DNA of 64,000 bases from Verrucomicrobiota bacterium (lineage in GTDB: Bacteria > Verrucomicrobiota > Verrucomicrobiia > Limisphaerales > JADLHS01). Positions 52,339 through 64,000 of this stretch are shown in pieces. The stretch's first letter is position 1. Each line of letters begins with the position of its first letter. The notes below the pieces were generated by a model. That model ran no database searches and was not told the origin of the DNA. It saw only the letters and a list, made by a program, of their open reading frames with translations. The position numbers were made by a program, and so were the translations under genes. The DNA lies in assembly GCA_025350905.1 (NCBI GenBank), contig JANXWY010000096.1, positions 1,919 to 65,918 of the forward strand. The letters are read 5' to 3'.

Positions 52339-52413
52339 TGGTGCGCGATACAGGGTTCGAACCTGTGACCCCTACCGTGTCAAGGTAATGCTCTACCACT
52401 GAGCTAACCGCGC
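52339..52413 (-). tRNA. tRNA-Val (anticodon GAC), CCA encoded
   Basis: Cloverleaf read by hand: acceptor GCGCGGT/ATCGCGC, D arm GCTC-AGTGGTA-GAGC, anticodon arm TTACC-TTGACAC-GGTAG, variable GGGTC, T arm ACAGG-TTCGAAC-CCTGT, discriminator A, CCA. Confidence 0.9.
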
Positions 52414-53375
52414 ACTCCGAATCGACGCTCACTAACTTCTTCAGTTTAAGCGTCATGGTGAAAGTATCCGAGAAAATGGCGGCTCGCGCAACTTGATTCT
52501 AAACGGTGATGTTAGGCACTTTGTTAGACACTCGGTAATGCTCCGGCAGCAGCGCCCACCAACGCCCGCGACTGGCGCTGCATATCACCCCGCCAACTTG
52601 GGCCGCAACCCCGCGCCGGTCGAGCGTGGGCCGTCGCACGAGTGCCGCGACCACAGCCGATTGCTCCACTGCTCGGAAACAAGCCAGCCAAGCGCACAGC
52701 ATTGAGTGTCGGGCGCAAGTGTGTCATTTGATGTTGACTGCTTTCCATCAGCGGCAAATCCGACGACGATGAGACTCCACACTAGGGATATGATGCTGAC
52801 AGTTCGCCAGCTTCGCTTACGACGCAGCAGGAGTGGCAATAGAAGCTCAAGGTAGCCAAGCGCGACATCACTTTCACGCAGTATCCATGGGCTGTCTATG
52901 GTGTTCTTGGTATTCAATGTTGACAGCCCAACTAACTATGTAGACACGCTGCAAGATGCCGGACGGCTGCGTAGCCACAAATATCAGCGATCTTTTCGCG
53001 TTGTTGTTTACATCGCGTAAAATCACTTCCGATCAATAAACACAGCACACTTGTCGCTGTTGCAGCTTCACAACGTCATCTTACGTTCAAATAATTCCAA
53101 AAAACTTCCCTCACCTGCTGAAATTATCAGTTCTCTCCAGATGACGAGCTTCTACGCCATGTTGGCGTGGGTCGTTATCGGTGATGAAAACGATAGTAAA
53201 TGCACACAGTTTGACCGGGCCGGGCCGCGCCCTTCGGGGACTGGCTGGACACCCAGCCGTTTCATCCGCGTTCTCGGTGCGGTCGCTTCATCCAAAATTC
53301 CACGCCGCGCCAACGCCCGCCGCGACGTGGTTCCAGTCGGCGCGGGTAACAACAAACAAAAAGAAAGGCATCACT

Positions 53376-53687
53376 ATGTTCGTCAATGAAACCCAAATGG
53401 AGATCGAAAAGTTCAAGTCTACGAGGGTCACCAATCAGGCCGTCTACGAAACTGCGTTCAGCATTGGAATAGATGTCCTGAATCACATCGCGAAGAACCT
53501 CGTCGCGCAGGACGAGCCACGTTTTGAGGACGATGGCACGCTTACTGTACAAGCGCAGGACGAGTTGTTAAACTTCGGTATCGACGGGTTCAACGATGTC
53601 CTGAATCACGCCTTGGTGTCGGGTTGGATCGACGCCGAGGTAGTGAACGAAGCCCGCAAGGAACTTGGCCTCGATCCCATCGCCTGA
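53376..53687 (+). CDS. Small highly acidic hypothetical protein
   Basis: ATG at 53376 preceded by aagaaagg. 19 Asp/Glu versus 7 Lys/Arg in 103 aa. Internal repeat 'GIDVLNHIAKNLV' / 'GFNDVLNHALVSG'. Confidence 0.5.
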   Translation: MFVNETQMEIEKFKSTRVTNQAVYETAFSIGIDVLNHIAKNLVAQDEPRFEDDGTLTVQAQDELLNFGIDGFNDVLNHALVSGWIDAEVVNEARKELGLDPIA

Positions 53688-53747
53688 CGAACCTCCGCGT
53701 TGCGCACCACACCCGGTGCGCAGCGTGGACTTCACAAACTGAGAGTT

Positions 53748-54212
53748 ATGAATACCAACTCAGATAGCAATTATCTCCCGCCACGCCGTGGCCGCACCAC
53801 CGAACAACCAGCGTCCGATCTGCCGCGTCGCTCTCCGCCCGTCGAGCGACCCGATACTGTCGCCGACCTCCTTCGCCAACAAGTCCCCGAGGGCACAATG
53901 GGAGGGGGAGTCTCGATCCGAGAATGGTTGCTAGACCAAGCGTGGGAATGGACTGACAAACATATTGTACCAGTAAACCGGGAGGCTGAACACGCAGACT
54001 CGGCCCTTGAGTTCGCCTCTGTGGTTGCGTTCCGGAGCGGCGTCGAACTCGCTTGCCATGTAATGGAGCGCGGCAAGCTTGACAGAACTTTCGGAAAGCG
54101 GTGGCGACAACTCTTGTCCGCAGCCAAGCGGGATGTCGAGCGGTGGCGGGCTGAAGAAGCCGAGCAACCGGGCCAGCGTGCCGACTCCGCTGCGCACCAC
54201 CCGTCAGTGTAA
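53748..54212 (+). CDS. Hypothetical protein
   Basis: ATG at 53748 after gagag. 154-aa ORF with no recognisable motif. Same strand and spacing as its neighbours. Confidence 0.4.
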   Translation: MNTNSDSNYLPPRRGRTTEQPASDLPRRSPPVERPDTVADLLRQQVPEGTMGGGVSIREWLLDQAWEWTDKHIVPVNREAEHADSALEFASVVAFRSGVELACHVMERGKLDRTFGKRWRQLLSAAKRDVERWRAEEAEQPGQRADSAAHHPSV

Positions 54213-54535
54213 ACAACACCGATTACCTCACAATGCAAGACCCAACACGCAGTGCTCCTGCGCTGTATACAGCGCAGGAGTCCGACGATGAAAATGCGCG
54301 ATGCGGCCACGAGTGAAAATGTTGAGTGACGGTTGTAGTTAGATCAGCGGATTGAAGACCCGCGTTAAAAGAATGAAGCACCATTCAATTTATGGCGGGC
54401 GTCCCGAAAGGGCGTCGGGCTGCTTCATTCCCCGGTCTTCAAGCCCGCCAACCTTTTTGCTGGCAAAGCAAAACTTCCAACGTTCCCCTCACCCTGCTCA
54501 TTCAATGCGCAGCGCACCCTCCACCTTCGCACGCT

Positions 54536-61816: not shown

Positions 61817-62326
61817 ATGAAACAAATATCCGCAATTTTGATTGGTCTGGCGCTGATGGGCTGCTCGACCGTCCCGACGTTCGTCCGTCACGACATTCCC
61901 AACTTCAGGCCGGTGCCCGACGATCCGGGTGTTTACCGTGGGGGGCAGCCCAAGTCTCAGGAAGGCTGGGCATATCTTCAAAGCCTCGGTGTCAGCAACG
62001 TCGTCAAATTGAATTTGGAGTCCGAAGCCTCGGACAGCGATGCCAGAGCGCTGGGGATGACGGTAAACTATTGTCCCATCGCCACGCTTCACCAGATACT
62101 GCTCAAGCCCGACCGGCAAACCGTGTCCAACGCGGTCGCGGCCATCACACCCGGCACATACGTTCACTGTAAACACGGGCAAGATAGAACCGGGTTGATC
62201 GTTGGTTGTAAACGCGTCTGGCAGGACGGCTGGGCCAAGACCAACGCGTGGAACGAAATGCTTGCCGACGGTTTTCATCCGTCGCTTCACGGATTGACCA
62301 AATTCTGGAACACCGACGTTCATTGA
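61817..62326 (+). CDS. Lipoprotein protein-tyrosine/dual-specificity phosphatase (CX5R; PFA-DSP/Siw14-like)
   Basis: ATG at 61817. Lipobox 'LALMGCS'. Active site 'VHCKHGQDRTGLIVGCKR'. Confidence 0.7.
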   Translation: MKQISAILIGLALMGCSTVPTFVRHDIPNFRPVPDDPGVYRGGQPKSQEGWAYLQSLGVSNVVKLNLESEASDSDARALGMTVNYCPIATLHQILLKPDRQTVSNAVAAITPGTYVHCKHGQDRTGLIVGCKRVWQDGWAKTNAWNEMLADGFHPSLHGLTKFWNTDVH

Positions 62327-62629
62327 CTCAGCGAGCCAATCGGATTCGTAAACAAGGCTCGCCCGACGGTGGTTGTAAACAGGCGCGGTGTCACCGGTGT
62401 ACACAGTGCCGGTTCGCCTGCGGATACCTGCATTTCGGAGTTACGCGTCTTGCACGTTGTGTACGAAGCGCGTAGCCTCGCGGAACGAAGCGGCCCGTCT
62501 GGGCAAGAATGAGGCGGCTTCTCATTATTCAAGAATGAAAGCCACGCTGTTCAAGGTTGCAGGGGATGATGCACCGAGTGCTGAACGCCTCCGGTTTATC
62601 ATGTCTCTGGTCGGCTGAAGGATAGCAAC

Positions 62630-63787
62630 ATGGGATACTCCAAGTACACTGAAGACATCGAGAAGATTCACTCCCTAAATATCTTTGGGACGTTCCTTGA
62701 TTTTCAAGTACGGGAGCCGAAACCGATTCATCGTTGCGGCTTCTGCAACTTCGAGACGGATGACCGTCAGTCACGTGATGCGCACATTCTGAAGGAGCAC
62801 CGCGATGCGGCAATTTACTTGGAGTACGATGATCGCATTGTGCCTGATCGGGCCGTGTTCAAAGTTCGCCCGATTCACTTGAAGATTCGCTGCCCGGCAT
62901 TGCCTGATGGCATCGAAGTCACGATCAGTTCGAGATCAAAGAAGTTGCCATCCCGAACATACAAGGACGGCGCTCTGCTGAAGATTACGCCGCCGGATGA
63001 AGAAGTTGTCACCATTCAACTCGGTATCGGCGCGTACAAACGCGAGTACTCCATTTCATTTCGTCACCAGACCTTTTCAGCCAAACTGACGACAACACTT
63101 ACGGCTGAGGTTAAATCTGCAAATGCGCGGATTAGCAACTGGGAGTGGCCGGATGTAGACAAATTCAAGACCGCCCTGTTGGGAGAGGCGGGGTTGAGCG
63201 AGGATGACAACTTGCACCGCCACGGTATTTTCGAGTTCTACCACGCTCTGTGGCTGGAGCAGAACCGCAAAACTGCATTCGCACAGCATTTCGAGGCAGC
63301 CTTCAAAGACCTGCGCAACTTCAGCGACCCGCTCTCCCAAATGATCGTCAGTTATTTCTTGTACCGGGTGAATTGCTTCGACAGTATTTCGCCGCTTATT
63401 CCCTTTCCGCGCCTGCGCCACGTGGCTGCCTTTTTTGGATCACCGTTCGACAGTCTGGTGGTCAACAACCGGCCCAAGCCCAAAGACGCGGAAGGAGAAT
63501 TTGTAGTGTGCGAAATTGCCATCGCCGACGCCGATGAATCAGTTCTTTCCGCCTTGTCGGCGGTGCAGTGTGCCAACTGGAGCGCGGCGCTTCAGCACTG
63601 CGAAACTGCCGAGCAGCAAATACTGGCGAATGACGATCAAACCCGGTACCGAGTGCTGTTCCTCCGTTATCGTATCCATCGCTTGCAGGGCGACACGGGC
63701 GCGAGCCGCCGTCTTGCCGAGCGGTTGAGAGTGTGCAGCGTGAAGTCATTCCAAACTGAAGCTGAAAGCTACGTGCGCAGTATTTGA
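62630..63787 (+). CDS. Hypothetical protein with N-terminal classical C2H2 zinc finger and helical C-terminal half
   Basis: ATG at 62630 after gaagga. 'CGFCNFETDDRQSRDAHILKEH' = C-x2-C-x12-H-x4-H. Confidence 0.55.
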   Translation: MGYSKYTEDIEKIHSLNIFGTFLDFQVREPKPIHRCGFCNFETDDRQSRDAHILKEHRDAAIYLEYDDRIVPDRAVFKVRPIHLKIRCPALPDGIEVTISSRSKKLPSRTYKDGALLKITPPDEEVVTIQLGIGAYKREYSISFRHQTFSAKLTTTLTAEVKSANARISNWEWPDVDKFKTALLGEAGLSEDDNLHRHGIFEFYHALWLEQNRKTAFAQHFEAAFKDLRNFSDPLSQMIVSYFLYRVNCFDSISPLIPFPRLRHVAAFFGSPFDSLVVNNRPKPKDAEGEFVVCEIAIADADESVLSALSAVQCANWSAALQHCETAEQQILANDDQTRYRVLFLRYRIHRLQGDTGASRRLAERLRVCSVKSFQTEAESYVRSI

Positions 63788-63790
63788 ATT

Positions 63791-64000
63791 ATGGAAAACG
63801 CCAACCCATCTGCCTTTGAAGTCGCCCTCAACGCTACCAAGTCCAAAGCAGCAGGATCACTGAAAGCCGCTGACATCAAGCGGTTGATCAAGCTGTTGGG
63901 CAAGAGGCCCAACGAGATAGGAGTGCGACAAATCACGGAACTCATTGTGAGCGAGTCGGACAACGAAGTCCTCGTGTATGAACTTTTGTGTGAAATTGAA
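63791..64000 (+). CDS. Hypothetical protein, 3' end cut by window edge
   Basis: ATG 3 nt after the previous stop. Open for all 70 codons to the edge (MENANPSAFEVALNATKSKAAGSLKAADIKRLIKLLGKRPNEIGV...). Absent from the ORF track only because no stop is reached. Confidence 0.45.
   Translation, partial: MENANPSAFEVALNATKSKAAGSLKAADIKRLIKLLGKRPNEIGVRQITELIVSESDNEVLVYELLCEIE

Follow-up and report, generated by a model that had tools for sequence, protein, structure and literature searches.

A genomic island of at least 31 kb, very probably inserted on the 5' side of tRNA-Val(GAC), in a Verrucomicrobiota bacterium

Background

The stretch of DNA analyzed here (the window) comprises 64,000 nucleotides of a Verrucomicrobiota bacterium and corresponds to positions 1919-65918 of contig JANXWY010000096.1 (C103) in assembly GCA_025350905.1 (G000). 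Our interest was drawn to its right-hand end, which begins at a minus-strand tRNA-Val(GAC) gene. A previous interpretation made from the letters alone (the sequence-only reading) had described this end as a mobile-element-like region lying on the non-canonical side of the tRNA gene with no integrase in view. Three options had been offered: the attachment site and integrase lie past the right window edge, the element carries the tRNA, or the adjacency is a coincidence. The locus raises the question of how such a region came to abut the 5' end of a tRNA gene and where its integrase might be. The results presented below indicate that the region very probably forms the left part of a single genomic island, at least 31 kb long, which was inserted in tRNA-Val(GAC) by a tyrosine integrase and whose assembled parts are distributed over three contigs.

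G000 is a metagenome-assembled genome (MAG) of 489 contigs and 6.27 Mb, with 59.7% GC and 4.2% estimated contamination, and C103 extends 5,071 bp past the right window edge. The sequencing runs were examined as Logan contigs. They represent a sediment metagenome, and the locus was present in four runs of one study, three of which are possibly the source. Runs X5-X12 contained less than 0.1 of the sampled words, and no habitat claim is drawn from them for that reason.

Results

A split tRNA gene and its empty site

The intact tRNA-Val(GAC) gene at the left junction of the island (52339..52413, minus strand; called by ARAGORN and by Rfam tRNA at 67.6 bits) is the single tRNA that these two programs detect in the window and the single tRNA-Val(GAC) copy of the G000 assembly. 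When the gene and its flanks were compared by blastn with the whole assembly, positions 52373..52416, which comprise tRNA nt 1-41 plus 3 upstream nt, were identical at 44 of 44 positions to C265:2562-2605. The two copies, designated attL on C103 and attR on C265, have the same strand sense and are located on different contigs; ARAGORN made no tRNA call on the C265 copy. The intact gene adjoins the native downstream flank and the C265 copy adjoins the native upstream flank, where a PUA/SAM RNA methyltransferase, a glycosyltransferase and ribosomal protein S1 are encoded to the right of the fragment. At this fragment the GC content along C265 changes from 0.55-0.58 on the integrase side to 0.61-0.64 on the housekeeping side.

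Comparison with relatives demonstrated the presence or absence polymorphism that had been proposed as a check. In G008:C47, from the same genus, a single contig runs from the C103-type downstream flank through tRNA-Val into the C265-type upstream flank, including its methyltransferase gene, and the junction alignments of G000 against G008 describe a clean insertion with the 44-bp repeats as its boundaries. The tRNA-Val gene likewise lies directly beside the methyltransferase gene in G004:C341, G006:C322, G014:C24 and two G019 contigs. The regenerated target would consist of host-derived nt 42-75 and of nt 1-41 supplied by the element. The option that the element carries the tRNA holds in part, since the first 41 nt and an upstream promoter-like segment appear to have come with the element, but the whole tRNA did not.

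A second pair of matching sites was identified a short distance inside the repeats. The 19-nt motif GTTAGGCACTTTGTTAGAC (52511..52529, plus strand), composed of two GTTAGRC units 11 nt apart, was found by pattern search once in the window, and its partner GTTAGGCAATTTGTTAGGC was found once in C265 (2472-2490) on the same strand, with 0 matches expected by chance. These are the only two matches in the 6.27-Mb genome; the first is located 95 nt and the second 72 nt inward of its repeat. We consider the pair to be putative arm-type integrase sites, the C103 copy being the candidate arm site of attL. A similar motif, GTTAGAC-N2-GTTAGAC, lies between tRNA and integrase in another genome of the order (G064). 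Taken together, the 44-bp repeat, the uninterrupted site of relatives and the two matching arm motifs lead us to reject a coincidental adjacency of tRNA and mobile-element-like genes.

The tyrosine integrase and the extent of the island

In agreement with the sequence-only reading, no integrase was found on C103. A tyrosine integrase gene was located on C265 (1254-2420, minus strand; PF00589 score 29.9 bits, cut-off 27.1), and the option of an attachment site and integrase beyond the right window edge was the one borne out, since both lie on other contigs of this assembly (C216 and C265). The integrase open reading frame (ORF) is intact, encodes 388-463 aa and starts about 140 nt inside the tRNA fragment. 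Residues K273, R332, W352-Q-G-H355 and Y365, which represent the beta-hairpin Lys, Arg-II, His/Trp-III and the nucleophilic Tyr of tyrosine recombinases, are invariant in an alignment of five members of the subclade. In a profile match to XerC/XerD-type structures, these boxes were aligned to the XerC-like structure 4a8e with an E-value of about 1e-3.

The third contig is linked to the integrase by a split gene. A single Cas4-like/DUF2779 nuclease gene is divided between the left end of C265 and the right end of C216: residues 35-223 of a 521-aa G098 homologue correspond to C265:568-2 and residues 228-520 to C216:11903-11025. This split gene places C216 beside C265, so that the island measures at least 31 kb (16.7 + 11.9 + 2.6). 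The 11.9 kb of C216 encode cargo with Pfam matches to SEC-C, SIR2, HATPase_c, Laminin_G_3 and an HTH-fused N6/N4 DNA methylase. On this contig (L113, 99-1586 and 2671-4167), a SEC-C-motif protein is encoded directly before a SIR2-family protein, and a HATPase_c protein is also present; these SEC-C, SIR2 and HATPase_c genes, which belong to the portion of the island adjoining its integrase end, are typical defence-island content.

A PHROG scan of ten island ORFs returned only the resolvase described below and weak replication matches, with no phage structural genes; nor did Pfam identify structural phage genes among the ORFs of the assembled parts of C216 and C265. No relaxase, coupling protein or type IV secretion gene was present among the Pfam matches of the scanned ORFs, which are a subset of the ORFs in the assembled parts.

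Composition of the region right of the tRNA gene

Windowed profiles of G000 upheld the composition break that had been described at tRNA-Val. The GC content is 0.566 across the 16,658 bp from the 5' end of tRNA-Val to the end of C103, as compared with 0.600 leftwards and 0.597 genome-wide; for 18-kb windows of G000, the 1st and 5th GC percentiles are 0.565 and 0.579. Tetranucleotide distances of two 10-kb windows right of tRNA-Val fall at the 95.7th and 96.4th percentiles, and the remainder of C103 ranges from the 2nd to the 83rd. The shift is modest in size and real. The right-hand gene block is absent from 23 same-genus genomes, in which matches are limited to the tRNA and a few short pieces. 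A flat composition profile or a block syntenic in relatives had been named as observations that would speak against a mobile region; the shift is present and the block is not syntenic.

The interval 52414-53375, previously described as lacking a convincing gene, gave no family match for any ORF. It contains a putative attachment-site arm, made up of an 87-nt segment adjoining the tRNA and the unique 19-nt motif. Among direct repeats of attachment-site type searched for inside C103, none was above chance and none included the tRNA.

The segment adjoining the tRNA 5' end (52417..52500, minus strand) is a putative promoter for the regenerated tRNA gene. Sequence comparison shows that these 87 nt stand in place of the native upstream sequence of G008, G004, G006 and G014 and are 78-83% conserved with G002:C18, G011:C2 and G020:C18. 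On the tRNA strand, the conserved blocks TTGCGC (52486-52491) and GATACT (52463-52468), read by eye, are separated by a 17-nt spacer and are common to these genomes; a strict sigma-70 consensus scan did not call TTGCGC-N17-GATACT as a promoter. No integrase was detected beside the segment in G002:C18, G011:C2 or G020:C18. The tRNA-Val(CAC) gene of G000 itself, on C350, is without the segment. The segment may be the remaining end of an element or a native promoter that was captured.

Integrase homologues and attachment-site geometry in other genomes

A search of 151 genomes of the order identified nine, G000 included, with an integrase homologue at E <= 1e-20. In two of these, which belong to other families (G169:C107 and G098:C144), a fragment of tRNA-Val comprising nt 1-39/41 lies just upstream of, and co-oriented with, a 36%-identical integrase. 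ARAGORN made no tRNA call on either fragment, and the intact tRNA-Val genes of both genomes are on separate contigs. The repeats of G000, G169 and G098 are exact from nt 1 to about nt 41. G169:C107 additionally links fragment and integrase to a 975-aa BT4734-like primase-helicase fusion, about 0.3 kb past the integrase, which is 31-33% identical to the helicase encoded in the window. An AT-hook-protein homologue is located on the 5' side of the intact tRNA-Val in G169 (C64), and a Cas4-like/DUF2779 gene occupies the 5' side of the intact tRNA-Val in G098. The 5'-half geometry is a trait of this integrase subclade.

A canonical arrangement was observed in G064, which has two homologues: an intact tRNA-Val is followed by the integrase and, 20 kb on, by an exact 52-nt repeat of nt 27-78. 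Between the 5' identity block (nt -3 to 41) and the 3' identity block (nt 27-78), the only positions in common are nt 27-41, which correspond to the anticodon stem-loop, and we infer from this overlap that the crossover takes place there in both forms. Judged from these sequences, the elements of the two forms would differ just in which tRNA half their attP carries.

At the class level, 23 of 26 integrase loci (L115-L140) have an intact tRNA gene immediately upstream on the opposite strand, with nine specificities represented, which again places the integrase on the tRNA 5' side. Low-GC islets are found on the tRNA 5' side in the closed genomes G421, G483 and G489, clearly so in G421 and G483; that of G421 is 4 kb long and sharply bounded, with a GC content of 0.43-0.50 against 0.64-0.67. 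No tRNA-fragment repeat of at least 12 nt was detected within 25 kb in these three genomes, and BLAST over 60 kb detected none either. The 5'-fragment geometry is consequently established for the close subclade only, and the wider family is characterized by adjacency to the tRNA.

The replication block

The rightward operon of the island is preceded by a promoter-like site at 53067-53095 and begins with two small ORFs (53376..54212, plus strand; 53376-53687 and 53700/53748-54212) that have no Pfam or PHROG match. The next gene (54392..55759, plus strand; likely start at 54536 or 54557) encodes a protein with an N-terminal Cys/His zinc-finger-like motif. The predicted structure of this protein has the fold of archaeo-eukaryotic primases (AEP), in keeping with the primase-polymerase named by the sequence-only reading. 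Neither the protein nor its 24 homologues gave a Pfam, PDB or PHROG sequence match. An AlphaFold2 model built with the 24-sequence alignment reached a pLDDT of 85; the model from the single sequence (pLDDT 34) was useless. VIA-align of the former returned a Z-score of 9.5 to RepB' (rmsd 3.6, 145 aligned), 9.0-9.1 to PriS and 8.6 to the S-2L PrimPol, with residues 151-398 aligned and all of the top 50 rows being AEP, and the Foldseek E-values are weak by themselves (0.017). Conservation across the 24 sequences is complete or at least 90% for E244xD246, D281-T-G-x-K-S-x-H288 and D358.

The start of the following gene (55756..57714, plus strand) overlaps the primase stop, and the two genes are translationally coupled. 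Its product is an SF3/D5-like NTPase and a candidate replicative helicase, and the identification as an SF3-like NTPase stood: the protein is of Walker type, with an invariant Walker A-like Q339-x-G341-K342-G343 and D389-N390, a DUF5906 match of 18.1 bits that is under the gathering cut-off of 27.6, and weak PHROG matches. Only eleven homologues were found in 5.8 billion proteins, two of them with fused BT4734-like_N and PriCT_2 primase domains; such fusions are seen in P0006, P0007 and the G169 protein. Metagenome contigs yielded nothing in a scan with the single protein and six loci in an alignment-based scan. A further alignment-based scan gave 39 helicase loci, all but two of which are titled as MAGs of PVC phyla (Verrucomicrobiota, Planctomycetota, Lentisphaerota, Chlamydiota).

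The block is completed by two genes in the opposite orientation to the replication genes. A 272-aa product (57965..58783, minus strand) ends in the AT-hook GRKRGRPRG, as had been noticed from the sequence, and is a candidate regulator. Its stop is overlapped by a 61-codon ORF (57783..57968, minus strand), which tblastn found to be conserved in L056 at 85% over 41 aa. Homologues of the AT-hook protein with 59-60% identity occupy the same post-helicase position in L017, L058, L059 and L060.

At many of the helicase loci a tRNA or tmRNA gene is found at a distance of 2-4 kb, its 3' end towards the helicase. The order in L017, L059 and L060 is tRNA-Gly, tyrosine integrase, a 561-aa protein, helicase and, on the other strand, the AT-hook homologue. 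The proximity of helicase relatives to tRNA or tmRNA genes and integrases indicates that the block is a replication module of tRNA-integrating elements. As compared with L017, L059 and L060, the C103 module has the tRNA inverted and no integrase alongside. With L056, which encodes a helicase of 80% identity, the window has no more than 54635-58005 in common, which implies that the module moves among different backbones, and the integrase of the L060-type element is not related to that of C265, which implies that it travels with different integrases. The contigs of L017, L059 and L060, three assemblies of one element type, all stop at the same point in the AT-hook gene, which suggests a repeat or hypervariable region beyond that point.

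In the replication modules of mobile elements, the AEP primase-polymerases of plasmids and phages are typically accompanied by SF3/D5-type helicases. The C103 protein resembles RepB' of RSF1010 (3h20) and the PrimPol of cyanophage S-2L (6zp9) in its catalytic-domain fold; it also has conserved acidic and His motifs, and its gene is coupled to that of a Walker-type NTPase with primase-fused relatives. It differs from them in that no sequence-level Pfam AEP or PDB match is obtained and in that the accompanying helicase stays under the DUF5906 cut-off.

Discussion

Proposed organization and mechanism

Read in the direction of the tRNA, the locus would begin with the native upstream flank and its methyltransferase on C265, followed by the displaced 5' half of the tRNA gene, an arm motif and the integrase. 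The Cas4-like/DUF2779 nuclease shared by C265 and C216 would come next, then the C216 cargo (SIR2, HATPase, DNA methylase) and a gap. The order would then continue with the C103 cargo, resolvase, AT-hook protein, helicase, primase, arm motif, 87-nt segment, tRNA-Val and the native downstream flank. The integrase would bind the GTTAGRC arm repeats and the core, with recombination taking place at the anticodon stem-loop. Here attP would carry the 5' part of the tRNA and a promoter, unlike the canonical 3' part. An attP of this composition leaves the island 5' of the regenerated gene, and the 5' half that was displaced stays with the native promoter. Integration would in effect exchange the first 41 nt of the tRNA and its promoter for element copies, and the sole tRNA-Val(GAC) of the assembly appears to depend on a mobile-element promoter. 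On C265, the displaced native promoter and 5' half would point into the integrase gene about 140 nt off, and we speculate that this promoter may drive or modulate integrase expression when the element is integrated. Homology further suggests that the primase-helicase pair could support autonomous replication of an excised circle, that the RuvC-like enzyme would resolve junctions and that the AT-hook protein would act as a regulator. The island may still be mobile.

A broader proposal, which we advance tentatively and hold to be rather doubtful, is that the integrase represents a distinct class-wide family, recognizable by GxGQAE and RxxR, that habitually lies on the tRNA 5' side, and that attachment-site polarity was flipped in one subclade so that the element installs its own tRNA promoter and the displaced native promoter reads into the integrase. 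Were this correct, integrase expression could be wired to the integrated state, and the family would offer a natural system for the evolution of attachment-site polarity and for the dependence of an essential tRNA on a mobile promoter.

Alternative explanations

Several observations weigh against insertion of a single island by the C265 integrase. C103, C216 and C265 are not physically joined, a search for end overlaps among them was empty, and the Logan contigs break inside the tRNA; the architecture consequently rests on the repeats, the motifs, the split gene and the comparison with relatives. No circular or empty-site molecules were found in the Logan contigs, which cannot show rare junctions. 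The 87-nt segment also stands beside tRNA-Val(GAC) in G002, with ordinary-looking genes next to it, and beside tRNA-Val(CAC) in G011 and G020, and no displaced tRNA fragment was found in any of these three genomes. The primase-helicase block is distal to the integrase and inverted by comparison with G169 and L060. The integrase, moreover, has no Arg at the Arg-I position: box I reads G-V/L-G-Q-A-E, with Gly opposite the Arg of the XerC-like GLRVSE in a weak alignment that would permit a shifted Arg, and for this reason its activity is assumed.

An assembly chimera has to be considered, in which two organisms were joined at a conserved tRNA-Val and the composition break is an artefact. The tRNA is indeed 100% identical across several species of the genus, the summed depth of the Logan contigs that break within it is 160-180, the flank depth of 10-11.7 differs from the island depth of 7.1-7.5, and the assembly is a fragmented MAG with some estimated contamination. 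We nevertheless regard a chimera as very improbable. G002:C18, an independent assembly of another species, shows the tRNA with the downstream flank on one side and the 87-nt segment on the other, just as C103 does, which argues against a chimeric tRNA junction, and a 7,565-nt Logan contig begins in the 5' part of the tRNA and continues into the island. C265 presents the exactly complementary junction of half tRNA, integrase and native upstream flank, the unique 19-nt motif pairs the two contigs, and the assembly holds a single tRNA-Val(GAC). The missing Arg gives some weight to a different possibility, namely that the island entered as described and is now an immobile remnant with an inactive integrase and strain-specific cargo. 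The Gly at Arg-I, the RxxR of box II in place of the usual HxxR, the lack of an excision product in Logan contigs and the carriage of gene fragments (one from the 3' end of HU, the other a PLD-like N-terminus where C103 ends) are all consistent with this. The GxGQAE motif is however present in 15 of 16 pattern-readable homologues across the class, which favors a functional variant over decay; the integrase ORF is intact and the repeats, which match at 44 of 44 positions in G000, are likewise exact in G169, G098 and G064, and we consider a fixed remnant unlikely. IntDOT-type tyrosine recombinases of the CTnDOT literature are said to lack the first catalytic Arg and yet to be active. They share a non-Arg residue at Arg-I with the C265 integrase, in which a Gly within GxGQAE is combined with RxxR in box II.

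A composite nature of the DNA between the repeats is a more serious possibility, and the probability that we assign to it falls only somewhat short of even. Under this explanation the primase-helicase-AT-hook block, and perhaps all of 52.5-59.9 kb, is a separate replicative element or cassette in or on an older defence-type island, and the C265 integrase moves only part of the DNA between the repeats; it would refine the insertion of an island in tRNA-Val and does not exclude it. A variant contig in runs X1-X3, with a depth of 3.8-3.9 as against 7.1-7.5 for the full form, joins 53730 to 58822 via ten other letters, GAGGCGCGCG, and contains neither the 170-aa and 61-aa ORFs nor the genes of the primase, the helicase and the AT-hook protein. 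The limited sharing with L056 and the inversion of the block relative to the integrase point in the same direction. So does a fragment of an HU gene (59896..60007, plus strand; translation and tblastn), which comprises the last 27 codons and about 30 nt of 3' flank and sits between the resolvase and a transglutaminase-like gene. The fragment is 82% identical to the HU gene of C188; full HU copies are present on C188 and C69, and the 5' part was searched for on C103 and not found. Logan contigs break at the fragment and their depth steps from 7.1 to 9.2 (9.2-9.6 right of 59924). It likely marks a seam joining two separately acquired parts of the island; the seam may be due to recombination, or the fragment may represent an old copy of an attachment site. 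From the variant without the block (53.7-58.8 kb), the inversion as compared with relatives and the HU seam, the island looks composite. Against a separately acquired block, however, there are no terminal repeats at the 53730/58822 joint, no second integrase or tRNA fragment exists on C103, the differences in unitig depth possibly reflect related strains or GC bias, and G169 has the same integrase type and a primase-helicase within one element. Insertion of one island in tRNA-Val(GAC), whatever the history of its parts, remains the explanation that we favor.

Comparison with known systems

Of 3,919 islands in Islander, 159 (about 4%) have a 5' tDNA fragment and 3,760 a 3' fragment, and the filters of this resource accept 5' fragments when these lie upstream of the tDNA (Hudson, Lau and Williams, PMC4383910). 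Recombination at 5'-distal positions is described as 'considerably less frequent' in a passage of PMC6563490 that cites Zhao and Williams (2002, J Bacteriol 184:859). Islands of Klebsiella pneumoniae integrase clade I.d integrate upstream of arg2 and were exceptional in the survey concerned (bioRxiv 10.1101/2020.11.02.365908). Taken together, these reports indicate that 5' polarity is rare but documented. Williams (2002), as summarised in PMC4383910 and bioRxiv 10.1101/2020.11.02.365908, distinguished a symmetric anticodon sublocation 'A', to which the overlap of the two identity blocks at nt 27-41 corresponds.

The G000 island shares with the 5'-fragment class of Islander an intact tRNA gene, a co-oriented 5' fragment upstream of it, a tyrosine integrase between the two and the restoration of the 5' part by the island. 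Its configuration, an intact tRNA gene with a cognate 5' end fragment upstream in the same orientation, would pass Islander's filters. It differs from that class in its host, an uncultured sediment MAG for which the closest relatives of the element carry Verrucomicrobiota titles, and in an integrase that adjoins the fragment and not the intact gene. The non-canonical integrase boxes I and II and an AEP primase and SF3-like helicase module missed by Pfam set it apart as well. With the canonical anticodon-crossover island of G064:C1 it shares the target gene class, the integrase clade (36% identity), the GTTAGRC repeats between tRNA and integrase, an integrase that closely follows the tRNA or its 5' half in the same orientation, and an identity block that includes the anticodon stem-loop. 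In G064 the repeat spans nt 27-78 and the island is 3', whereas here the repeat spans nt -3 to 41 and the island is 5', so that, unlike in G064, a promoter must be supplied. Like the islands of Klebsiella clade I.d, the G000 island lies upstream of its target tRNA gene; the crossover there is in the D-loop, as opposed to the anticodon stem-loop proposed here, and the host phylum is unrelated.

The host lineage, the three-contig architecture, the opposite polarities within one integrase clade, the unrecognised primase family and the unusual integrase motifs are new. What had looked anomalous, namely an island located on the 'wrong' side of a tRNA without an integrase, was resolved through the repeats, the motif pair and a split gene over three contigs. 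The island adds an example from an uncultured sediment bacterium to the rare 5'-fragment class, with element relatives that are PVC-titled and mostly Verrucomicrobiota. Its canonical same-clade counterpart would pin the crossover to the anticodon stem-loop, and a fold-level annotation becomes available for a primase family that no sequence model recognises. Island finders that expect 3' fragments, or that proceed contig by contig, will miss such islands in MAGs.

Further features of the contigs

The remaining genes on C103 follow the replication block in the rightward direction. A 118-aa ORF (58934..59290, plus strand) is succeeded by a RuvC-like Holliday-junction resolvase (59316..59852, plus strand; phrog_1770 at E 6.5e-22, AIDPGKSGG motif), which had been recognised correctly from the sequence. 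About 120 nt at 59896-60016 that match many relatives were examined as a possible RNA gene; the candidate was rejected, Rfam being empty and the stretch translating as the C-terminal end of HU. Pfam then identified a transglutaminase-like protein (60113-61654), a lipoprotein tyrosine/dual-specificity phosphatase (61757-62326) and a C2H2-finger protein (62630-63787), all on the plus strand. The window also includes the start of a coiled-coil protein with a weak LmuB-like match, which continues past the window edge as the first of three cargo genes (window-equivalent 63791-67245; L001 13710-17164). An Hsp70-like ATPase (PF00012, E 1.8e-43) overlaps the coiled-coil gene, and the metallophosphoesterase that follows matches the PADLOC candidate PDC-S10; the coiled-coil, Hsp70-like and PDC-S10 set is a possible defence-type module among the cargo. 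Near the end of C103 on the right (L001 18258-18990) there is a 199-aa ORF with an early stop, which is similar to the N-terminus of PLD-domain helicase-type proteins. It overlaps a minus-strand ORF that is open at the contig end and has a Hint/intein-like start (CVDPATKVLTTD...GD). Neither of these two ORFs has a Pfam match.

Several short remnants were observed on the 3' side of tRNA-Val. An N-terminal fragment of the type I restriction subunit HsdR (PF04313, E 8.5e-8) lies at 51744-52055 on the minus strand and has 91% DNA identity to a piece on G008:C629; its position signifies that the canonical side too bears debris of an earlier island. To the left of it, short non-coding pieces at 51352-51507 and 51673-51749 have 81-92% matches in several same-genus genomes, for example G002:C18, G019:C15 and G008:C1291, with much wider spacing in G002. 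These pieces may be small repeats or remnants.

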